DNA from: Escherichia coli
GTDB taxonomy: Bacteria > Pseudomonadota > Gammaproteobacteria > Enterobacterales > Enterobacteriaceae
Direction: 5' to 3' (one strand)
Length of the DNA stretch: 64,000 nucleotides
NCBI RefSeq assembly: GCF_048403405.1
Contig: NZ_CP183129.1
In this document: in pieces, positions 22,813-51,563 of the stretch
Numbering within the stretch: the first letter of the stretch is position 1
How the letters are laid out: each line of letters begins with the position of its first letter
Position numbers and translations under genes: made by a program
The notes under the pieces: generated by a model
What the model saw: only the letters and a program-made list of their open reading frames with translations
Database searches by the model: none
What the model was told of the DNA's origin: nothing

Positions 22813-25679
<2,867 letters not shown>

Positions 25680-25819: not shown

Positions 25820-26746
25820 TTAACTTTCTATTTTTACTCTTTTCTCCACCATAAAATCAATAAAAGCACGAACTTTAGAGGGCATTCTCACCCGTGATGA
25901 AACATATATATAAAATCCAGGAAATGAAACGGCCCAATCCTCAAGAATCGGCTGTAACTTGCCCGCATTGATATGTTCAGCGATTGCAAAATCCAGATGT
26001 TGAATGATACCCGTTCCATTCAGCGCCATTCGTATCATGCTTTCGTCATCATTAGAAATATACTTACCTGAAACCTCTATTTCGAACTCTTCATTACCCC
26101 CCACAACATTAGAAAACTCCCATGCAGAGAGTGCACCGCTACTTTTATGCCGCAACCGAAGGCAATTATGGTTACTCAGTTCCTGAGGCGTTTCAGGAAT
26201 ACCGTGTTCTTTTAAATAATCTGGCGATGCCACAGTAACCAGTTTAATAAGCGGAGAAACAGGAACGGCAGTCATATGCTCATCCAGTCCTTGCTCAAGA
26301 CGTATGCCCACATCACAGCCGTCCGCAATAATGTTAGATAAACCGTCATCCATAATGAGTTCTATCTTTGTTTTGGGGTAACGAGTAAGAAACTCGCCAA
26401 TATGAGGCTCAACAAGCATCCGTGCTGCAACACGGGAGGAATTTATTCTCAACAGGCCTGTAGGTTCAAGTTGGGTATCACCAACATCTTTCAAAGCATC
26501 ATCAATTTGCCCCAAAGCCGACACCAGCACTTCATACAGACGCTGTCCTTCCTCAGTAAGCGACATATTGCGGGTCGTACGGTATATCAGCTTGGTGTTA
26601 AGACGTTCCTCAAGAGATTTTAAATTCTGGGACAATGCGGCCCGTGTAATACCCATTTCAGAAGCGGCTCTGGAAAAACTGCCGGCACGAACAATAAGCG
26701 CAAACCAGGCAAGAGAAGGCAAAATTGAAGGCTCTATTTTCATCAT
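25820..26746 (-). CDS. LysR-family transcriptional regulator
   Basis: ORF 25820..26809; ATG 26746 with AAGG RBS; LysR HTH (FSRAASEMGITRAALSQNLKSLEERL); divergent from hydrolase gene at 26903. Confidence 0.75.
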   Translation of the reverse strand: MMKIEPSILPSLAWFALIVRAGSFSRAASEMGITRAALSQNLKSLEERLNTKLIYRTTRNMSLTEEGQRLYEVLVSALGQIDDALKDVGDTQLEPTGLLRINSSRVAARMLVEPHIGEFLTRYPKTKIELIMDDGLSNIIADGCDVGIRLEQGLDEHMTAVPVSPLIKLVTVASPDYLKEHGIPETPQELSNHNCLRLRHKSSGALSAWEFSNVVGGNEEFEIEVSGKYISNDDESMIRMALNGTGIIQHLDFAIAEHINAGKLQPILEDWAVSFPGFYIYVSSRVRMPSKVRAFIDFMVEKRVKIES

Positions 26747-26902
26747 TGTAAACCTTAACTTAACACTGTGATAGATATTAGACCATTGATGATAACCAAT
26801 ACAAGTCATACTATTACGCCGTTCTCGATATGAACACGAATGCCAGTTGCGGATAATAGAAATGATATTTAAATCTGTTTAGGCAAATCCCCGGAGCTTG
26901 AA

Positions 26903-27823
26903 ATGAAAACTGTTTCGATAAAACATACTTACTGGGATATAGCTGCTGATATCTATTTCCCTGACGATTTTAATAGTGAAAAAAAGTATCCTGCCATTAT
27001 CAGCGCCCATCCAATTGGAAGCTGCAAAGAACAGACATCGGGCAGTGTGTATGGTGCCGCCCTGGCAAAAGCTGGCTTTATCGTCATTGCTTTTGATGCC
27101 AGTTTTCAGGGAAGCAGCGGTGGAGAACCGCGTTATCTGGAAGATCCAACAATGCGAGTAAAAGACTTCAGCATTGTCGTTGATTACCTTACCACCTTAC
27201 CTTACGTTGATGCCGGGCGTATTGGTGTACTGGGTATTTGTGGTGGAGGTGGATATGCCATTAATGCCGCAATGACAGAACGTCGAATTAAAGCTATTGG
27301 TACTGTCACGGGTGCAAACTACGGGCGTCTTATGCGTGAGGGATTTACAGCGTTTAATCCTATCGGAGCACTCGAAGCGATGGCGCAACAAAGAACAGAC
27401 GAAGCTAACGGCGCAAAACTTCGCGTAGATGATTTACTCCCCTCTTCTCCGGATGCAGCTCTTGAAGCGGGATTAACAGAAATAGACCTTTTTGAAGCCA
27501 CAGAATATTATCGTTCGCCACGAGGCTGTGCACCTAATGGGGTAAATCGTTCGCTATTCTCACATCAGACTGTTGCCGTGGGTTGGGATGCATTTCATCT
27601 TGCAGAAGTCCTGTTAACTCAACCAATAATGGTTGTGGTGGGCGATAGAGTGGGCGCATTTGGTGCCTACCGTGACGGCTGCGAAATTATTGGCCGCGCT
27701 GCCTCAAAACATAAAGAGCTGGTCGTGGTTGAAGGTTATTCACATTACGACCTGTATGATAAGCCAGAACCTGTGAAACAGGCACTCGAAAAATTAATTC
27801 CTTTTTATAAAACACATTTGTAA
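26903..27823 (+). CDS. alpha/beta-fold hydrolase with Cys at the nucleophile elbow (dienelactone-hydrolase-like)
   Basis: 306-aa ORF, GGAG RBS; motif RIGVLGICGGGGYA (G-x-C-x-G) and conserved His in YSHYDLYD; no signal peptide. Confidence 0.7.
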   Translation: MKTVSIKHTYWDIAADIYFPDDFNSEKKYPAIISAHPIGSCKEQTSGSVYGAALAKAGFIVIAFDASFQGSSGGEPRYLEDPTMRVKDFSIVVDYLTTLPYVDAGRIGVLGICGGGGYAINAAMTERRIKAIGTVTGANYGRLMREGFTAFNPIGALEAMAQQRTDEANGAKLRVDDLLPSSPDAALEAGLTEIDLFEATEYYRSPRGCAPNGVNRSLFSHQTVAVGWDAFHLAEVLLTQPIMVVVGDRVGAFGAYRDGCEIIGRAASKHKELVVVEGYSHYDLYDKPEPVKQALEKLIPFYKTHL

Positions 27824-27995: not shown

Positions 27996-29138
27996 ATGAC
28001 AAATAAACACCCATCATTGTTTTCTCCTTTTATGCTGACAGAAAAAATAAAGCTACGTAATCGTATCGTTATGGCCCCTATGACGACCTGGTCAGCGAAT
28101 CCTGATGGAACCATCTCTGAGCAAGAACTCGAATTTTATAAACGCCGCTCACAAAATGTTGGTTTAGTAATAACAGGATGTACCTATGTCACGCCAAGCG
28201 GCATTGGGTTTACTCATGAATTTGCCGCGTATGACGACCGTTTCATTAACAGCCTTGAAAAGTTAGCAGCGGCAGCCAAAAGTGGCGGTGCTCCGGCTAT
28301 TTTGCAGATTTTCCACGCCGGTAATAAAGCCATCCCGGAGCTTGTGCCAAATAACGATGTTATTAGTGCCAGCGCATCAAGCGTAAAATCTGGTGACTTT
28401 ATGAAGAGAGTGGTACAAAGCAGGGAAATGACTGAAAACGAAATTCAGGAAACCATTAGAGCATTCGGAGATGTCACAAAAAGGGCGATTAAAGCAGGTT
28501 TTGATGGCGTTGAACTTCATGGTGCGCACGGATTCCTTCTGCAGAATTTCTTCTCCCCTCTATTTAACCAGCGTAATGACCGATGGGGAGGAGATCTTGA
28601 AGGACGTATGCGCTTCCCGCTGGCCGTATTACAGGAAGTAAAAAATGTAGTCTATGAATATGCGACAAAGCGCTTTGCTATCGGTTACAGAATATCTCCT
28701 GAAGAATCTGTAACAGGGGGGCTGCGGATAGAGGATACTTATAAACTCCTTGATCGACTCATTTCATCCGGTATTTCGTATATACATACCTCGCTGGTCA
28801 GTATTAACGATAGCTACCCTGTTGAGTCGCCAAATGGCCCCCGAACTATTGAATTGATTTTAAATCATATTGCAGGCAGAGTGCCGGTAATCGCTGCAGG
28901 TAAAATACGCACACCGTCTCAGGCTCAAGAAGCAATTTCCGCTGGCCTGCCACTTGTTGCGATCGGTAAAGGGCTGGTGATAAATCCAGAATGGGTGACT
29001 TTAGCTGAATCAGGTAGAAGCCATGAAATTCAAACAACCCTTAATCCACAACTTGTTCCTGAATTAACCATTCCGGATAAACTATGGGATCAAATTCAGG
29101 CATCGAAAGGAACTGGCTGGTTTCCGTTAATGGATTAA
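27996..29138 (+). CDS. NADH:flavin oxidoreductase, Old Yellow Enzyme family (ene-reductase)
   Basis: 380-aa ORF, GAGG RBS; OYE signatures (PMTTWSA, HGAHGFLLQNFFSP, GYRISPEE). Confidence 0.8.
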   Translation: MTNKHPSLFSPFMLTEKIKLRNRIVMAPMTTWSANPDGTISEQELEFYKRRSQNVGLVITGCTYVTPSGIGFTHEFAAYDDRFINSLEKLAAAAKSGGAPAILQIFHAGNKAIPELVPNNDVISASASSVKSGDFMKRVVQSREMTENEIQETIRAFGDVTKRAIKAGFDGVELHGAHGFLLQNFFSPLFNQRNDRWGGDLEGRMRFPLAVLQEVKNVVYEYATKRFAIGYRISPEESVTGGLRIEDTYKLLDRLISSGISYIHTSLVSINDSYPVESPNGPRTIELILNHIAGRVPVIAAGKIRTPSQAQEAISAGLPLVAIGKGLVINPEWVTLAESGRSHEIQTTLNPQLVPELTIPDKLWDQIQASKGTGWFPLMD

Positions 29139-29610
29139 ATATCTATTACTCTCCCGAGAGTAAAACTATTAAACCAATGAGTAACCGATACAGCCTCGCA
29201 AATTCTTTCAGATAATTAACTCGTCACTGCGGCACGTTCTCTCGTAAGGCGTGCCTGCTGTGTAATCCAGTATGTATCCGGCATAGTTGACGGTTTAATA
29301 GAACTCAATTCCTCTCCCAGGTCACCAACAACGATATCTTGTATAACACCCCAGGAGATACGACATTATGATGAGATGCGATATGCTCCTCAGCGCCAAT
29401 CAACGCCCGGGCTGGGCCAGTTTTGAGATCAGACTCATTCCCGGACTGACTTCAGGCGACATATATCAATGACGTTGGGGCAATAAAAGATAGCCGATGT
29501 AATACATCTATTCAAATTTGTGATACATGTCAAAAAATTGGTTGACCAAACTCGTTATTTATATAAGGGCACTTACGAAGTGCACTCTTTTTTAAAGCGA
29601 GGAAGTACCA

Positions 29611-44104: not shown

Positions 44105-45061
44105 ATGTCATACTCGCTTTTTGACAAAGACGAGCACTGGCATAAGCCAGAGCAGGCGTTTCTCACCGATGACCACCGGACCATTCTGCGCTTCGCCGTA
44201 GAGGCGCTAATGTCCGGTAAAGGAGCGGTGCTGGTGACGCTGGTGGAGATACGCGGCGGCGCGGCGCGCCCGCTCGGGGCGCAGATGGTGGTGCGCGAAG
44301 ATGGTCGTTACTGCGGTTTTGTCTCTGGCGGCTGCGTGGAGGCCGCTGCCGCTTTTGAAGCGCTGGAGATGATGGGCTCAGGCCGCGATCGCGAAATTCG
44401 CTATGGTGAAGGTTCGCCGTGGTTTGACATCGTTCTGCCCTGCGGCGGTGGGATCACGCTGACGCTCCATAAACTACGCTCGGCACAGCCTCTGCTCGCC
44501 GTGCTGAACCGCCTGGAACAGAGAAAACCGGCGGGTCTGCGCTACGATCCGCAAGCTCAATCGCTGGTGTGCCTGCCCACGCAAACCCGGACGGGCTGGA
44601 ATCTCAATGGCTTTGAGGTGGGGTTCAGACCATGCGTCAGTCTGATGATTTACGGACGTTCTCTTGAGGCGCAGGCAACCGCGAGTCTTGCAGCAGCCAC
44701 AGGCTATGACAGCCATATCTTCGATCTTTTTCCGGCCTCAGCCAGCGCTCAGATCGATACCGATACGGCGGTCATTTTGCTGTGCCATGATCTCAACCGG
44801 GAGCTGCCAGTGTTGCAGGCCGCGCGAGAGGCAAAACCCTTTTATCTCGGCGCATTGGGCAGCTATCGAACCCACACTTTACGTCTGCAAAAGCTCCACG
44901 AGCTGGGATGGTCCAGGGAGGAGACAGCGCAAATCCGGGCACCCGTCGGGATATTCCCCAAAGCCCGGGATGCGCATACTCTGGCACTCTCCGTGCTGGC
45001 AGAAGTCGCCTCTGTACGTCTCCATCAGGAGGAGGATTCATGCCTGCCCCCGTCGTCCTGA
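44105..45061 (+). CDS. paoD: molybdenum cofactor insertion chaperone PaoD (XdhC-like)
   Basis: 318-aa ORF directly after paoC. Confidence 0.8.
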   Translation: MSYSLFDKDEHWHKPEQAFLTDDHRTILRFAVEALMSGKGAVLVTLVEIRGGAARPLGAQMVVREDGRYCGFVSGGCVEAAAAFEALEMMGSGRDREIRYGEGSPWFDIVLPCGGGITLTLHKLRSAQPLLAVLNRLEQRKPAGLRYDPQAQSLVCLPTQTRTGWNLNGFEVGFRPCVSLMIYGRSLEAQATASLAAATGYDSHIFDLFPASASAQIDTDTAVILLCHDLNRELPVLQAAREAKPFYLGALGSYRTHTLRLQKLHELGWSREETAQIRAPVGIFPKARDAHTLALSVLAEVASVRLHQEEDSCLPPSS

Positions 45062-45240
45062 TCCTTGCGGCCGGGCGTGGAGAGCGCTTTCTCGCCTCCG
45101 GGGGAAATACCCATAAATTAAGAGAAAAATCTGCAGTAGCCGTTTTAGAAAATCACCTAAATCGTTTAAAAGAGCACCCAACCCATAGTGGGCGCTCATC
45201 GCCTTGTGTAACTTATTCAGCAACGCGCGCCCTCGCCGGA

Positions 45241-46434
45241 CTAAAGCGCACCGGCCTTCTGGCGTGCGGTAACAAAGGTCAGTACGCCAGCGCAAAGGAG
45301 CAGCACGCTACTCATAGCAAACGTGCTCTGCCAGCCAAGGCGGTCAAATACGATGCCTCCTGCTGTTGATCCAAGGGCGATGGAGAGCTGAATCACCGCG
45401 ACCATGAGCCCGCCTCCGGCTTCGGCGTTGTCAGGCAACGTACGCGCAATCCATGTCCACCATCCGGTTGGCGCGGCGGTGGCCAGCATGCCCCAGAGTC
45501 CTAACAGCAGCGAGACCGTCCAGACGTGATGCCCGGTCAGCATCAGACCGATAGCAATGACGGCCATCAGTCCGGGTATGGCCATCAGCGTGGGGTAGAA
45601 TTTTCTGTTGAGAAATGCCGAAACAACCAGCGTGCCAATAAAACCGGCCACGCCGATAATCAGCAAAATCAACGACAAGCCTAAGGAATTAACCCGTGTC
45701 ACCGACTCCAGAAACGGGCGCACATAGGTGAATAGTGCAAACTGCCCCATGAAAAACAGGCAGCAGGCTATCATGCCGACCACAACCATGCGGCGGCTAA
45801 ATAAGCGGAATACCGCGCCACATGAAGTGTGGCTTTTATTCGCATCCATGCTTGGCAGGCTGATGCACTGCCAGATAAAGGCGACAACCGCGATGGGCAC
45901 CAGGCACAAGAAAGCGCCTCGCCATCCGACCGTAGCCCCCAGATAGCTTCCCAGCGGTGCGGCCACGACCGTCGCCAGCGCATTACCGGCGTTGAAAATT
46001 GCCAGCGCACGCGTGACCTGATGCTGCGGCACCAGACGAATCGCCGTTGCCGCTGACATCGACCAGAATCCGCCAATAGCCACACCAATCATCGCACGAC
46101 CGACCATATACATCAGATAACTGGAAGCCAGCGCAATAATAAGCCCCGATACGGCCATCAGAACCGTCATCCCCAGCAGCAGGAACTTACGATTCATCTT
46201 TCCAGCTAGCGTTGAAAGCGTCAGGCTGGTCAGAACCGCCAGCGCGCCGGAGATAGCAATCCCCTGCCCTGCCAGCCCCTCCGTCACGCCTAAATCGCGG
46301 GTAATCGGCGTGAGCAGGCTGACGGGCATAAATTCAGAAGCAATCAGCACAAACACGCACAGGGTCATGGCAAAAATACCGCCCCAGTATGCGCGCTGAT
46401 GATGAGGTGATAGTGTTTGGCTTAGTGTCGACAT
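45241..46434 (-). CDS. MFS transporter (12 predicted TM segments)
   Basis: 397-aa ORF, hydrophobic throughout; weak RBS, so start uncertain. Confidence 0.7.
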   Translation of the reverse strand: MSTLSQTLSPHHQRAYWGGIFAMTLCVFVLIASEFMPVSLLTPITRDLGVTEGLAGQGIAISGALAVLTSLTLSTLAGKMNRKFLLLGMTVLMAVSGLIIALASSYLMYMVGRAMIGVAIGGFWSMSAATAIRLVPQHQVTRALAIFNAGNALATVVAAPLGSYLGATVGWRGAFLCLVPIAVVAFIWQCISLPSMDANKSHTSCGAVFRLFSRRMVVVGMIACCLFFMGQFALFTYVRPFLESVTRVNSLGLSLILLIIGVAGFIGTLVVSAFLNRKFYPTLMAIPGLMAVIAIGLMLTGHHVWTVSLLLGLWGMLATAAPTGWWTWIARTLPDNAEAGGGLMVAVIQLSIALGSTAGGIVFDRLGWQSTFAMSSVLLLCAGVLTFVTARQKAGAL

Positions 46435-46509
46435 AGTGAAATTTCACAAAGATCAGGATAAAAGCCACCAGCCTATGGCCGGTGGCTTTGCATCAATTCA
46501 GGAGAGGTT

Positions 46510-47646
46510 TTATTTCAGTTTGGTCTGGAAAAATTGTTCGAACTTCGCGAAAGGTATTTTTCCGGCCACGTTATCGTACAGGTCCACGTGATTTGCCCCT
46601 GGTACCACCACCAACTCTTTGTCTTTACTGCCAACCGCCTTGTAAGCATCTTCAGCAAAATAGCGTGAATGTGCTTTCTCACCGGTCACAATCAGCGTCG
46701 GAATGGTGATTTCACTGGCGTAGCTCAACAGCGGCATATTCATAAATGACAGCGGCATCGTTGCCGTCCACGCCCCGGTAGAGTTAACGGAACGTTCGTG
46801 GAAGCCGCGCGGCATGCGATAGTAGTCAAAGAACTCTTTCAGTACCGGATGAGGATTTGCCGGCAGCGTTTCTGGCAGAATGCGCTCGCCCGCACTGACC
46901 TTGCCGTTGCTGTCGACATTAATATCATGACCACCGTGAGCGAACGTTCCGCTCTGCGCATCCTTCCAGCGCTGTTCATTCAGATATTGCAGAACGGCAC
47001 GACGGTCGGCGGTAGAATAACGGTCTTTGCCATCCCCCACACCATGACCCATCGCCCGGCTCATGTCATACATCACGCTGGTAGCTACCGCTTTAACGCG
47101 GGTATCCATCGCCACGTCGTTCAGCGCCATGCCGCCCCAGCCACAAATACCGAGCAGCCCGATACGGTTGCGATCTACCTCTTTTTGCAGCCCTAAGAAA
47201 TCCACCGCCGCGCTGAAATCTTCAGTGTTGATATCCGGTGAGGCGACGTTTCGCGGATAGCCGCCGCTTTCCCCGGTGTAAGAAGGATCGAACGCCAGGG
47301 TAACAAACCCTCGTTCCGCCAGCGTCTGCGCATACAAGCCGCTGGATTGCTCTTTCACCGCGCCAAATGGCCCACTGACCGCAATCGCCGCCAGCTTGCG
47401 ATCGCCACGGTCTTTAGGCAGGTAAAGATCGCCCACTAAGGTGATGCCATATCGGTTCGGGAACGAGACTTTACGGTGATCGACTTTCTGGCTCTCGGCG
47501 AACGTTTTATCCCATTTATCTGTCATGGACACAGGGGCATTAGGATTGGTTGAATCAGCATAACTCATTGTCGTGACTCCACTTAATGATGCGAAAAGCA
47601 GCATGGTCGGCATCGCGGTTTTTAGCGTGCGGGTGAAGGCTTTCAT
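46510..47646 (-). CDS. secreted alpha/beta-fold hydrolase with Cys nucleophile, paralog of ORF 26903..27823
   Basis: ORF 46510..47667(TTG); ATG 47646 with GGGGA RBS; signal peptide ending SYA; motifs RIGLLGICGWGG and NHVDLYD. Confidence 0.7.
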   Translation of the reverse strand: MKAFTRTLKTAMPTMLLFASLSGVTTMSYADSTNPNAPVSMTDKWDKTFAESQKVDHRKVSFPNRYGITLVGDLYLPKDRGDRKLAAIAVSGPFGAVKEQSSGLYAQTLAERGFVTLAFDPSYTGESGGYPRNVASPDINTEDFSAAVDFLGLQKEVDRNRIGLLGICGWGGMALNDVAMDTRVKAVATSVMYDMSRAMGHGVGDGKDRYSTADRRAVLQYLNEQRWKDAQSGTFAHGGHDINVDSNGKVSAGERILPETLPANPHPVLKEFFDYYRMPRGFHERSVNSTGAWTATMPLSFMNMPLLSYASEITIPTLIVTGEKAHSRYFAEDAYKAVGSKDKELVVVPGANHVDLYDNVAGKIPFAKFEQFFQTKLK

Positions 47647-47832
47647 AAAAATCCCCATAAAAAACAACAGAGAGATACAGGTTTCCGACGGACAACGCTG
47701 CGGTGCTTTACTTTGATGGGGTCATTATAGTGAGCAGAATTAGTGCTGATTAGGGGGCGATTAATGCTAAGATTAATACCATATTGTTATAAATTAATGT
47801 GGAGATTGCCGGCATGAAGGGGGGATGTTTCA

Positions 47833-48717
47833 ATGGCGAAAAGGGAGAACTACAACGAGCTGTACCTGTTTATGCAGGTGGTGCGAGAAGGCAGCTTTAC
47901 CGCAGCGGCTCAGCGGCTGGGTCTTGCTCAGTCAGGAGTCAGCCGTTCTGTTCGCGAGCTTGAAGAAAGGCTGGGTGTCCAGCTGCTAGTGCGCACCACG
48001 CGTAAACTGTCGCTGACACAAGCAGGCGAGCAGCTCTACCAGAAGACGGCATCTGGATTTGAAATGTTAGATCTTGGGCTTGCCACACTGGCGCACTATC
48101 GAGAGACGCCCTCCGGCACGGTGCGTATCAATGCCAGCCAGCACGCGATTGATAAATGCCTGCTGCCAAAGCTGGCGGTATTTAAACAGCGATATCCTGA
48201 TATCCGGCTTGAACTGATAAATGAGAGCCGGTTCGTCGATATCATCGAGGAAAGATTCGATGCAGGTGTCCGCCTGGGGCCTGAAGTCGGCCAGGGTATG
48301 GTCGCGGTACGCATCACGCCCGATATGGAGATGGCAATTGTGGGGACTCCGGAACATTTTCGTCGCTATGGTTTTCCGCAAACCCCGGCGGATTTAAAGG
48401 CGCATCCCTGTATCGCCTATCAGTTTGCCGACGGCAGCGTATACCAGTGGGAACTCAATCAGGATGATAAAAAAATCACTCATCGCCCTGAAGGGCAATG
48501 GGCCTTATCCGACAGCTATATGGAAGCAGAAGCCGCCCGGCTGGGCCTCGGATTGGCCTATGTTCCTGTTGAACTGGTCGCGGATGATTTAGAACACGGT
48601 AAGCTTATCAGGGTGTTGCAGCGTTACAGCCTGCGAATGGAGGGATTGTTTCTCTATTACCCTCATCGCAACGTCTCCCCCGCCCTGCGGATGGTCATTG
48701 ATACATTGAAAATCTGA
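47833..48717 (+). CDS. LysR-family transcriptional regulator (possibly YagP-like)
   Basis: 294-aa ORF; LysR HTH (FTAAAQRLGLAQSGVSRSVRELEERL); divergent from hydrolase-MFS genes. Confidence 0.75.
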   Translation: MAKRENYNELYLFMQVVREGSFTAAAQRLGLAQSGVSRSVRELEERLGVQLLVRTTRKLSLTQAGEQLYQKTASGFEMLDLGLATLAHYRETPSGTVRINASQHAIDKCLLPKLAVFKQRYPDIRLELINESRFVDIIEERFDAGVRLGPEVGQGMVAVRITPDMEMAIVGTPEHFRRYGFPQTPADLKAHPCIAYQFADGSVYQWELNQDDKKITHRPEGQWALSDSYMEAEAARLGLGLAYVPVELVADDLEHGKLIRVLQRYSLRMEGLFLYYPHRNVSPALRMVIDTLKI

Positions 48718-48789
48718 ACGTTAACAACGACCGACTCTTTACTGTGCAATATTGTGTCAGGTAGTCCCTCTGCGTTCAATTCCAGGGTT

Positions 48790-49210
48790 TGTACTGACCC
48801 CAAAAAGTTGGACAGTTAAACACGAGGCATATAGGTCTGATTCCGATATTCAATTGGAGTCAGACCTTTTAATTTCAGGCTAATTCTTCTGCTGTTGTAG
48901 TATTCAATATATTCCGTAACAGCATCCTTCAGTTCGCTTATATTACTGAACTCATCAAGATAAAAACACTCCGACTTTAAGGTTCCAAAGAAACACTCCA
49001 CCACAGCATTATCCAGACAATTGCCTTTTCTGGACATGCTTTGTTTAATACCATGTTCTTTAAGGATATTTTGATATCTTCTCATACGATACTGCCATCC
49101 CTGGTCAGAGTGCAGAACAGGATGCTCGTGAGGATTAAGCTTTTTGAATGCCTGATCGAGCATATTCTCAACCATGTTCATCACTGGTCTTTCCGAAAGG
49201 CTGTAAGAAA
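48790..49210 (-). mobile_element. IS3-family (IS150-like) fragment: terminal repeat plus C-terminal part of orfB
   Basis: End TGTACTGACCCC at 48790; minus-strand ORF 48816..49283 encodes the DDE integrase C-terminus (HSDQGWQY...[11 protein letters not shown]); truncated at IS26 boundary 49210/49211. Confidence 0.65.
49203..49210. repeat. 8-bp IS26 target-site duplication copy (GTAAGAAA)
   Basis: Abuts IS26 copy 1; its reverse complement TTTCTTAC is at 50736-50743 abutting copy 2. Confidence 0.8.
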
Positions 49211-50030
49211 GGCACTGTTGCAAATAGTCGGTGGTGATAAACTTATCATCCCCTTTTGCTGATGGAGCTGCACATGAACCCATTCAAAGGCCGGCATTTT
49301 CAGCGTGACATCATTCTGTGGGCCGTACGCTGGTACTGCAAATACGGCATCAGTTACCGTGAGCTGCAGGAGATGCTGGCTGAACGCGGAGTGAATGTCG
49401 ATCACTCCACGATTTACCGCTGGGTTCAGCGTTATGCGCCTGAAATGGAAAAACGGCTGCGCTGGTACTGGCGTAACCCTTCCGATCTTTGCCCGTGGCA
49501 CATGGATGAAACCTACGTGAAGGTCAATGGCCGCTGGGCGTATCTGTACCGGGCCGTCGACAGCCGGGGCCGCACTGTCGATTTTTATCTCTCCTCCCGT
49601 CGTAACAGCAAAGCTGCATACCGGTTTCTGGGTAAAATCCTCAACAACGTGAAGAAGTGGCAGATCCCACGATTCATCAACACGGATAAAGCGCCCGCCT
49701 ATGGTCGCGCGCTTGCTCTGCTCAAACGCGAAGGCCGGTGCCCGTCTGACGTTGAACACCGACAGATTAAGTACCGGAACAACGTGATTGAATGCGATCA
49801 TGGCAAACTGAAACGGATAATCAACGCCACGCTGGGATTTAAATCCATGAAGACGGCTTACGCCACCATCAAAGGTATTGAGGTGATGCGTGCACTACGC
49901 AAAGGCCAGGCCTCAGCATTTTATTATGGTGATCCCCTGGGCGAAATGCGCCTGGTAAGCAGAGTTTTTGAAATGTAAGGCCTTTGAATAAGACAAAAGG
50001 CTGCCTCATCGCTAACTTTGCAACAGTGCC
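49211..50030 (+). mobile_element. IS26 (IS6 family), copy 1, 820 bp
   Basis: 14-bp terminal inverted repeats GGCACTGTTGCAAA at 49211 and 50017-50030; encodes Tnp26. Confidence 0.92.
49274..49978 (+). CDS. tnpA: IS26 transposase Tnp26
   Basis: 234-aa product [35 protein letters not shown]...; track ORF starts at upstream TTG 49256. Confidence 0.92.
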   Translation: MNPFKGRHFQRDIILWAVRWYCKYGISYRELQEMLAERGVNVDHSTIYRWVQRYAPEMEKRLRWYWRNPSDLCPWHMDETYVKVNGRWAYLYRAVDSRGRTVDFYLSSRRNSKAAYRFLGKILNNVKKWQIPRFINTDKAPAYGRALALLKREGRCPSDVEHRQIKYRNNVIECDHGKLKRIINATLGFKSMKTAYATIKGIEVMRALRKGQASAFYYGDPLGEMRLVSRVFEM

Positions 50031-50743
50031 CTTGCTGGTAGTGGTTCTGTAGCCAGGTGGCTGAAGGTCTATGAAGAGCGCGGAGAAGCTGGTTTACGCG
50101 CGCTCAAGATTGGCACCAAAAGAAACATTGCAATATCAGTTGATCCAGAAAAAGCGGCATCAGCATTGGAGCTGTCAAAAGACCGACGCATTGAGGATCT
50201 TGAAAGGCAAGTTCGATTTCTTGAAACGCGGCTTATGTATCTAAAAAAGCTGAAAGCCTTAGCTCATCCCACGAAAAAGTAAAAGTACTCAACGAGCTAA
50301 GGCAGTTTTATCCTCTTGATGAGCTTCTCAGGGCTGCGGAGATACCGCGCAGTACGTTTTATTACCATCTAAAGGCTCTCAGCAAGCCTGACAAGTATGC
50401 GGACGTTAAAAAGCGTATTGGTGAGATTTATCACGAGAATAGAGGCCGATACGGATACCGTAGGGTAACGCTGTCTCTTCATCGAGAAGGGAAACAGATT
50501 AACCATAAAGCTGTTCAGCGCCTGATGGGAACCCTCTCACTTAAAGCAGCGATTAAGGTCAAGCGATACCGCTCTTACAGAGGAGAGGTAGGGCAAACCG
50601 CCCCTAATGTTCTCCAAAGAGATTTCAAGGCTACGCGGCCAAACGAGAAGTGGGTTACCGATGTTACTGAATTTGCAGTCAATGGGCGCAAGCTGTATTT
50701 GTCTCCAGTAATAGATCTCTTCAACAACGAAGTTATTTCTTAC
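50031..50743 (+). mobile_element. IS3-family (IS150-like) fragment: C-terminal part of orfA and N-terminal part of orfB, inverted relative to 48790..49210
   Basis: orfA end with stop at 50279-50281; orfB N-terminus to 50743 (...KWVTDVTEF...[17 protein letters not shown]); frame continues into the minus-strand fragment across the shared 8-bp repeat. Confidence 0.65.
50736..50743. repeat. 8-bp IS26 target-site duplication copy (TTTCTTAC)
   Basis: Reverse complement of 49203-49210, abutting IS26 copy 2. Confidence 0.8.
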
Positions 50744-51563
50744 GGCACTGTTGCAAAGTTAGCGATGAGGCAGCCTTTTGTCTTATTCAAAGGCCTTACA
50801 TTTCAAAAACTCTGCTTACCAGGCGCATTTCGCCCAGGGGATCACCATAATAAAATGCTGAGGCCTGGCCTTTGCGTAGTGCACGCATCACCTCAATACC
50901 TTTGATGGTGGCGTAAGCCGTCTTCATGGATTTAAATCCCAGCGTGGCGTTGATTATCCGTTTCAGTTTGCCATGATCGCATTCAATCACGTTGTTCCGG
51001 TACTTAATCTGTCGGTGTTCAACGTCAGACGGGCACCGGCCTTCGCGTTTGAGCAGAGCAAGCGCGCGACCATAGGCGGGCGCTTTATCCGTGTTGATGA
51101 ATCGTGGGATCTGCCACTTCTTCACGTTGTTGAGGATTTTACCCAGAAACCGGTATGCAGCTTTGCTGTTACGACGGGAGGAGAGATAAAAATCGACAGT
51201 GCGGCCCCGGCTGTCGACGGCCCGGTACAGATACGCCCAGCGGCCATTGACCTTCACGTAGGTTTCATCCATGTGCCACGGGCAAAGATCGGAAGGGTTA
51301 CGCCAGTACCAGCGCAGCCGTTTTTCCATTTCAGGCGCATAACGCTGAACCCAGCGGTAAATCGTGGAGTGATCGACATTCACTCCGCGTTCAGCCAGCA
51401 TCTCCTGCAGCTCACGGTAACTGATGCCGTATTTGCAGTACCAGCGTACGGCCCACAGAATGATGTCACGCTGAAAATGCCGGCCTTTGAATGGGTTCAT
51501 GTGCAGCTCCATCAGCAAAAGGGGATGATAAGTTTATCACCACCGACTATTTGCAACAGTGCC
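50744..51563 (-). mobile_element. IS26, copy 2, inverted relative to copy 1
   Basis: 820 bp with the same 14-bp terminal repeats; encoded transposase identical at protein level to copy 1. Confidence 0.92.
50796..51500 (-). CDS. tnpA: IS26 transposase Tnp26
   Basis: Same 240-aa track translation as 49256..49978. Confidence 0.92.

Follow-up and report, generated by a model that had tools for sequence, protein, structure and literature searches.

Here we describe a three-gene cassette in a 64,000-nucleotide stretch of the Escherichia coli chromosome (NZ_CP183129.1; hereafter the window), in which an alpha/beta hydrolase with a cysteine nucleophile and a conserved Sec signal peptide is encoded beside a major facilitator superfamily (MFS) transporter and opposite a divergent LysR-type transcriptional regulator (LTTR). 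The hydrolase is a paralog of a cytoplasmic enzyme encoded elsewhere in the window (26903–27823), and its linkage to regulator and pump recurs in three classes of proteobacteria. With moderate confidence, we read the cassette as an inducible periplasmic ester or lactone hydrolase equipped with an exporter and an LTTR sensor for a foreign small molecule.

The gene order of the window is eaeH, ykgM/O, ecp, yagU, paoABCD, thrW and proAB, and the cassette is located downstream of paoD. Its features are as follows:

45241–46434, minus strand: MFS transporter, 397 amino acids (open reading frame as in the original prediction)
46458–46489, minus strand: terminator-like hairpin GCCACCGGCC-ATAG-GGCTGGTGGC followed by UUUUAU, in the spacer separating the hydrolase and MFS reading frames
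46510–47646, minus strand: alpha/beta hydrolase precursor, 378 amino acids, PA2218/YcjY family, counted from the ATG originally chosen
46588–46590, minus strand: His353 codon, predicted triad histidine
46678–46680, minus strand: Glu323 codon, predicted triad acid
47143–47145, minus strand: Cys168 codon, nucleophile elbow
47557–47646, minus strand: predicted Sec signal peptide, residues 1–30 (MKAFTRTLKTAMPTMLLFASLSGVTTMSYA, cleaved before D), from ortholog conservation and AlphaFold disorder
47647–47832, minus strand: divergent control region, with conserved blocks in an alignment of 8 enterobacterial loci
47833–48717, plus strand: LTTR, 294 amino acids, divergent from the hydrolase gene

Family, active site and export signal of the hydrolase

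The similarity of the two hydrolases in the window is far beyond chance, as BLASTP aligns them at 32% identity over 323 columns (E 4e-35), and all three motif pairs from which their paralogy was originally proposed fall inside this alignment. Each of them also adjoins a divergent LysR gene (47833–48717 and 25820–26809, respectively), as had been noted. Both show full-length similarity to the solved members of the COG1073-type YcjY/PA2218 family and share its fold, including the cap domain. The exported copy is approximately 63–70% identical to Pseudomonas aeruginosa PA2218 (PDB 2HDW, E 2e-125) and matches E. coli YcjY (5XB6) at E 2e-43, while the cytoplasmic copy matches 5XB6 at E 4e-67 and 2HDW at E 6e-44. 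Because the exported copy is closest to 2HDW and the cytoplasmic copy to 5XB6, the two are, as judged by sequence, ancient paralogs from two subfamilies of one family, PA2218-like and YcjY-like. The suggestion that the genome holds cytoplasmic and exported versions of the same enzyme is therefore right about the presence and absence of a signal peptide, but not about sameness.

Both window proteins carry a family signature consisting of K-E-Q after strand 3, FDxSxxGxSxGxPR, G-I-C-G/A-x-G/A-G and H-x-D-L-Y-D, the columns of which are invariant or nearly so in alignments of 11, 30 and 54 sequences; K98-E99-Q100, D120, S122, S127, R132, D143, D149, R183 and R226 are further invariant residues that define the family. 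Since the C-terminal half alone matches only 2HDW and 5XB6 in a PDB search, the cap domain is, on these matches, specific to the YcjY/PA2218 family.

An AlphaFold2 model of the exported hydrolase (pLDDT 87, pTM 0.86) places Cys168 between strand 157–167 and helix 169–178, forming a nucleophile elbow, with Glu323 immediately past strand 317–322 (the next-to-last core strand) and His353 in the loop past strand 343–348 (the last core strand). The phmmer alignment sets Cys168 opposite the catalytic-motif serine of the serine hydrolase 8B4U (GLSMGG). The predicted Cys168-Glu323-His353 triad, placed from secondary structure and alignment, has the canonical alpha/beta-hydrolase topology. A cysteine at the nucleophile position had been proposed for both enzymes as part of a Cys-His-Asp triad; the cysteine and histidine were borne out, and the acid is aspartate in the paralog (Cys113/Asp248/His281) but glutamate in the exported copy.

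Among 52 full-length cluster representatives, the cysteine is present in 44 and the histidine in 34 of the 47 that align at this position, with glutamate (26) or aspartate (12) as the acid. Screening one genome per species yielded 591 relatives, of which the best 80 were analysed; neighbourhood and motif counts out of 77, here and below, rest on genomic homologs of the exported hydrolase. The cysteine is kept in 73 of the 77, within the motif GICG[WF]GG, and is the sole cysteine of the mature protein in 53. Three proteins of approximately 480 amino acids (P0150, P0157 and P0249) have glycine in place of the nucleophile and lack the histidine, and may be pseudoenzymes with an extra C-terminal region.

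The N-terminal signal peptide noted originally on the exported copy is kept in more than 100 enterobacterial orthologs, which share a basic n-region, a hydrophobic core and an S-Y/H-A cleavage site followed by D or E, and differ by in-frame indels of three amino acids; no comparable N-terminal extension is present on the cytoplasmic paralog. Cleavage is predicted after SYA30, the 378-residue reading opening with MKAFTRTLKTAMPTMLLFASLSGVTTMSYA and continuing with DS, and residues 1–33 are disordered in the AlphaFold model. In homologs further afield, the N-terminal signal is of the Sec, lipoprotein (..AGC, ..TSC) or twin-arginine (RRxLLK) type. Conservation of this cleavable signal points to Sec-dependent export of the hydrolase. 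The RefSeq/PGAP annotation starts the E. coli protein at Met27 (47566–47568; MSYADS), giving 352 residues and losing the signal peptide. As Met27 is not conserved, several orthologs having Ile, Lys or Leu in its place, this start can be ruled out in favour of the ATG at 47644–47646. A GGGGA Shine-Dalgarno sequence lies at 47656–47652, 5 nucleotides before the ATG at 47646; the mechanical open reading frame extends further, to a TTG at 47667. The RefSeq start call conceals the signal peptide, and its correction is due.

Neither hydrolase falls inside a characterised family: the matches in NCBIfam, Pfam, PDB and AFDB50 were only generic or sub-threshold. The 50 best AFDB50 neighbours are all uncharacterised, and Pfam matches were confined to weak hits on broad alpha/beta profiles (PETase-like, Abhydrolase, S15 and dienelactone hydrolase). 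For the dienelactone hydrolase profile (PF01738), the exported copy gives E 0.0085 across a 50-residue stretch and the paralog E 7.5e-5 across its N-terminal half alone, and these values do not amount to family membership.

The best NCBIfam match of both hydrolases is the N-acyl-homoserine lactone (AHL) lactonase UilS (NF047920; 64.4 and 75.0 bits), which is also the top match for distant family members (50–119 bits overall). AHL-degrading activity has been demonstrated for UilS (PMC11633161), and an exported quorum-quenching lactonase like UilS or AidA, destroying the signals of neighbouring bacteria, would be in keeping with these matches. We nevertheless regard this as improbable: the scores are far under the cut-off of 400 bits, and the best-matching stretch in both window proteins is the N-terminal half up to about the nucleophile; UilS is cytoplasmic; members of the family abound in Bacteroidota, Negativicutes, Campylobacterota and Melainabacteria, in which AHL signalling plays no prominent part; and the recurrent partner genes (cupin, aldo-keto reductase, flavodoxin-like) do not suit AHL turnover.

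Matches to peptidase profiles raise the alternative of a peptidase or amidase that cleaves peptides, from the cell wall or elsewhere, in the periplasm, by analogy with YcjY and the murein-peptide amidase MpaA under PgrR. Peptidase_S15 (Pfam) matches the cytoplasmic paralog at E 7.5e-10, weak S9 matches were also found, the neighbouring LysR regulator PgrR controls the ycjY-mpaA regulon (PMC5934670), and ycjY overexpression filaments E. coli (PMC3614548). The S15 and S9 matches are, however, limited to the generic N-terminal core up to the nucleophile, the C-terminal half carries the family-specific cap domain, and no peptidoglycan gene is recurrent beside the PA2218-type enzyme across the 77 loci. 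Such a role is suggested by analogy and seems improbable.

The exported enzyme is not a new kind of enzyme: it belongs to a known family for which two crystal structures have been solved, and many genomes carry its gene under a generic annotation. The original expectation of an undescribed function holds in so far as neither hydrolase belongs to a family with a known substrate, but the family itself has been known through 2HDW and 5XB6, deposited as ‘hypothetical protein’ and ‘uncharacterized protein’, respectively. YcjY was once proposed to be a polyhydroxybutyrate polymerase, on the basis of its GXCXG motif (PMC3709699). A literature search covering YcjY, PA2218, 2HDW/5XB6, PA2219/PA2220, opdE, af380 and PF18050 found no functional study. 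PA2219/OpdE and PA2220 probably form part of the same cassette in strain PAO1, and YcjY is presumably placed by databases with the ‘polyketide transferase af380’ family.

Regulator, pump and gene neighbourhoods

The regulator has the make-up of an LTTR (HTH_1 and LysR_substrate domains, ~300 amino acids): 56 LTTR profiles match it over its full length, the best NCBIfam match being the YafC-type LTTR (192 bits, under its cut-off), and its orthologs carry PF00126 and PF03466. Orthologous LTTRs (36–98% identity) flank the hydrolase within 2.5 kb in 28 of the 77 loci. The control region shared with the hydrolase gene contains the following elements:

47794–47776: conserved ATTTATAACAATATGGTAT box containing the T-N11-A motif TAACAATATGGTA, 47 nucleotides upstream of the -10 element
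from 47753: CTAATCAGCAC-N8-TGCT dyad
47729–47724: perfect -10 element TATAAT, with a poor -35

LTTRs characteristically act on a divergent gene whose promoter is preceded by a T-N11-A box, and the region appears to have the usual layout of an LTTR-activated promoter, with the box as the putative binding site of the regulator. The 5′ untranslated region of the hydrolase mRNA also contains a block conserved across enterobacterial genera (47660–47717, minus strand). A riboswitch or other leader RNA at this position was considered and rejected: Rfam had no match in 45000–49300, and the predicted fold did not stand out against shuffled sequences (z -0.16).

The transporter is a 12-transmembrane-segment protein of the DHA1 type, in the NepI-SotB-Cmx efflux group by NCBIfam match and hydropathy (NepI 292.7 bits, SotB-like 176, Cmx/CmrA 136); RefSeq gives a shorter version of 375 amino acids starting at 46368. 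Its best named relatives, i.e. NepI, the SotB-type sugar efflux proteins and the Cmx chloramphenicol efflux proteins, are all DHA1 exporters. The NepI purine ribonucleoside efflux profile (NF007578) has a cut-off of 584 bits, which the pump does not reach, and by its score the pump is a related DHA1 transporter, not a NepI equivalog.

Linkage of the hydrolase to this pump is conserved. Orthologous MFS genes (47–91% identity) lie within 1.1 kb of the hydrolase gene in 16 loci from Gamma-, Alpha- and Betaproteobacteria, in both gene orders; a 17th MFS neighbour, in Campylobacter, is only 22% identical. The divergent LysR-hydrolase-MFS arrangement was also found in Klebsiella michiganensis and Dickeya, in different chromosomal contexts, and hydrolase followed by MFS in a Pseudomonas sp. 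Linkage kept across three classes is good evidence of functional coupling.

Transcriptional coupling is a separate matter. The 75-nucleotide spacer between hydrolase and MFS genes folds into a GC-rich hairpin (RNAfold, -28.6 kcal/mol), and in Kluyvera, Hafnia, Klebsiella and Enterobacter the spacer also has a hairpin at this position, though with a different sequence. As this conserved hairpin and its U-run separate the two genes, the operon originally predicted is borne out only in part, in the link to the pump that is kept across proteobacterial classes. The hairpin may serve as a partial terminator that tunes the hydrolase-to-pump ratio.

These observations bear on the alternative that the three neighbours have no common function, the pump having its own promoter and the hydrolase standing alone. 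Besides the hairpin and U-run, it is favoured by the lack of an MFS neighbour in most non-proteobacterial loci and by a nucleotide match on Kosakonia and Pantoea plasmids that spans only the hydrolase and LysR genes, the genes around these on the plasmids not having been looked at. The linkage in 16 loci, three classes and both orders would not be expected without selection, and we consider this alternative unlikely.

Within E. coli, the cassette is present in 912 of 5,426 complete genomes (17%), generically annotated and nearly always chromosomal; plasmid carriage is negligible, with 6 records, 2 of them megabase-sized and chromosome-like. K-12 retains nothing of it. The K-12 gene yagP was considered as a remnant of the cassette regulator and ruled out: it is 28% identical, to the C-terminal half only, which indicates that K-12 holds a fragment of a different LTTR.

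Beyond the proteobacteria, enzymes of the exported subfamily 51–64% identical to that of E. coli are found in Bacteroidota, Negativicutes, Campylobacterota, Melainabacteria, Elusimicrobia and Verrucomicrobia, many of the carriers being gut organisms. Their recurrent neighbours include a small cupin (15 loci; NCBIfam ‘(R)-mandelonitrile lyase’, 182 bits against a cut-off of 140), a maltose/galactoside-O-acetyltransferase-like LbH protein (16 loci) and Cyclophil_like2 proteins (PF18050, ~18 loci), together with aldo-keto reductases, short-chain dehydrogenases/reductases and flavodoxin-like proteins, and AraC regulators in Bacteroidota. Signal peptides are present on most of the cupin and cyclophilin-like partners and absent from the LbH proteins. 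Two natural fusions join a signal peptide to a cupin and the hydrolase (P0202), and to two carboxymuconolactone decarboxylase (CMD)/PcaC-like domains and the hydrolase (P0192). Taken together, the cupin, CMD-like and Cyclophil_like2 partners and the fusions (loci L016–L089, P0192 and P0202) suggest an extracytoplasmic enzyme set for which no pathway has been described. Dickeya chrysanthemi has a Cyclophil_like2 gene with a hydrophobic N-terminus inserted between hydrolase and MFS (L005, 7234–7743), which connects the minimal cassette of the enterobacteria with the more extensive gene sets seen in other phyla.

Proposed role of the cassette

From a functional standpoint, we propose that the LTTR recognises the conserved box, which precedes a promoter dependent on an activator, and, upon encountering its ligand, switches on the hydrolase gene. 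The enzyme, made with a 30-residue Sec signal peptide, would act in the periplasm, where Cys168, activated by His353 and Glu323, would attack a carbonyl of the substrate, for which an ester or a lactone (unsaturated or enol) is the likeliest candidate; the resulting thioester acyl-enzyme would be resolved by water to release a ring-opened or de-esterified acid. The DHA1 (NepI-like) pump would expel the same or a related compound from the cytoplasm, with the partial terminator keeping its expression below that of the hydrolase. The copy at 26903 would be a cytoplasmic YcjY-type relative, working with an ene-reductase and aldo-keto reductases on related carbonyl or lactone chemistry.

Five points speak for an ester or lactone: the triad chemistry resembles that of dienelactone hydrolases, UilS is the nearest named profile, one family member is fused to CMD domains, the closest structure of a characterised protein is that of the lactone-forming DcsB, and the paralog keeps company with an ene-reductase and aldo-keto reductases. 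A number of points weigh against the proposal. None of the five supporting points amounts to a substrate test, and the UilS and dienelactone hydrolase profiles themselves match below cut-off or over a short stretch. A lone catalytic thiol is chemically awkward in the oxidising periplasm, and position +2 of the nucleophile elbow is Trp or Phe, not a small residue. The direction of MFS transport cannot be read from sequence, an exporter and a periplasmic hydrolase do not make an obvious pathway, and an importer of the product would be equally logical. Hydrolase and pump may also be transcribed as two separate units, given the conserved hairpin and U-run between them. Finally, the cupin, cyclophilin-like, LbH acetyltransferase and flavodoxin-like neighbours name no pathway.

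Thioester chemistry would equally serve an acyltransferase or transesterase that passes an acyl group from the cysteine to an envelope component, a small alcohol or an amine, along the lines of the Cys/Ser alpha/beta enzymes of polyketide off-loading, BAAT and polyhydroxyalkanoate synthase. An exported location, however, excludes coenzyme A and acyl carrier protein thioesters as donors, no carrier protein, synthase or acceptor-making gene is recurrent across the 77 neighbourhoods, and the off-loading enzymes DcsB and GrgF are only 20% identical. This activity seems to us rather unlikely, and hydrolysis of a foreign ester or lactone remains our preferred reading.

More tentatively, and with doubts that outweigh our confidence, PA2218-type enzymes may constitute a distinct class of extracytoplasmic cysteine hydrolases acting on one widely met compound, as the core of an undescribed exported pathway with hydroxynitrile lyase-type cupins and CMD-like and cyclophilin-like proteins. 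If this is true, the LysR-hydrolase-pump cassette of E. coli is the minimal form of that pathway. The exported enzyme family is very widespread, strongly conserved and mostly extracytoplasmic, and two crystal structures are at hand; the use of a catalytic thiol in the oxidising periplasm would also be of mechanistic interest. Both hydrolase loci are missing from K-12 yet present in 17% and 39% of complete E. coli genomes, and they stand for a chemistry that varies between strains of E. coli, commensal and pathogenic alike, and that has gone unnoticed through work on the model strain. The compact combination of regulator, enzyme and pump is unusually easy to study, and the LysR promoter can be used as an inducer reporter.

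The paralogous locus and comparison with known systems

The cytoplasmic hydrolase lies in a different setting, with two aldo-keto reductase genes close by and the following neighbours:

24726–25661, minus strand: second, distal LysR gene, in tandem with the next
25820–26809, minus strand: LysR gene facing, and divergent from, the cytoplasmic hydrolase gene
26903–27823, plus strand: cytoplasmic paralog, 306 amino acids, YcjY subfamily
27996–29138, co-directional with the cytoplasmic hydrolase gene: Old-Yellow-Enzyme (OYE) flavoreductase

Recent duplication of a whole module can be ruled out as the origin of the two loci, given identities of 32% between the hydrolases and 29% between the LysR proteins facing them; the cassette regulator is closer to the distal LysR (42%) than to the one facing the paralog. 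The LysR-hydrolase-OYE block is present in 2,105 of the 5,426 complete E. coli genomes (39%). The K-12 pseudogene ykgP corresponds to the last ~90 nucleotides of the OYE gene of the window (28950–29250; L090 23717–23806), which indicates that K-12 lost the whole block of two aldo-keto reductase genes, two LysR genes, hydrolase and OYE. Other strains carry a partial ykgR just downstream of the cassette LysR gene (L001 12840–12908) and an intact ykgR after the OYE gene of the cytoplasmic locus (L002 23830–23898). These copies may be the trace of an old rearrangement linking both hydrolase loci.

On the other side of the cassette, similarity to other strains stops ~75 bp past the LysR stop codon. 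The segment 48792–51803 contains two 820-bp copies of IS26 in inverted orientation (49211–50030 and 50744–51563; 100% identical), among IS3-family transposase fragments (48816–49283, minus strand; ~50525–50743, plus strand) and a 3′ fragment of an integrase, and the window lacks the thrW island that a near-identical strain carries (AbiE toxin-antitoxin and others). This segment looks like the product of an IS26-mediated deletion or inversion.

Of the known systems to which the cassette can be compared, YcjY is a member of the same family, but it is cytoplasmic, shares its operon with mpaA, not with an MFS pump or OYE, and in alignment has serine at the acid position of the two window enzymes. 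Dienelactone hydrolases of the ClcD/TfdE type (PF01738), in which a cysteine nucleophile is established chemistry, resemble the window enzymes in the alpha/beta fold and in the Cys-His-acid triad predicted for the latter; the likeness is one of mechanism, probably including lactone opening via a thioester intermediate, and not of family membership. The UilS and AidA lactonases provide the nearest functionally named profile and a common N-terminal core, but UilS, unlike the exported window enzyme, is cytoplasmic, and its profile scores 64–75 bits against a cut-off of 400. DcsB (7D78) and GrgF (6LZH) of fungal polyketide off-loading, at 20% identity, are eukaryotic and intracellular, act on carrier-bound thioesters and have no equivalent gene context; DcsB forms a lactone, although its PDB record labels it a thioesterase. 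Lastly, the fusion of enol-lactonase and carboxymuconolactone decarboxylase known as PcaL/PcaDC has an analogue in the CMD-alpha/beta hydrolase architecture of P0192, in which the hydrolase half comes from a different alpha/beta family and a signal peptide is present, while the E. coli cassette, unlike PcaL/PcaDC, is without a CMD partner.

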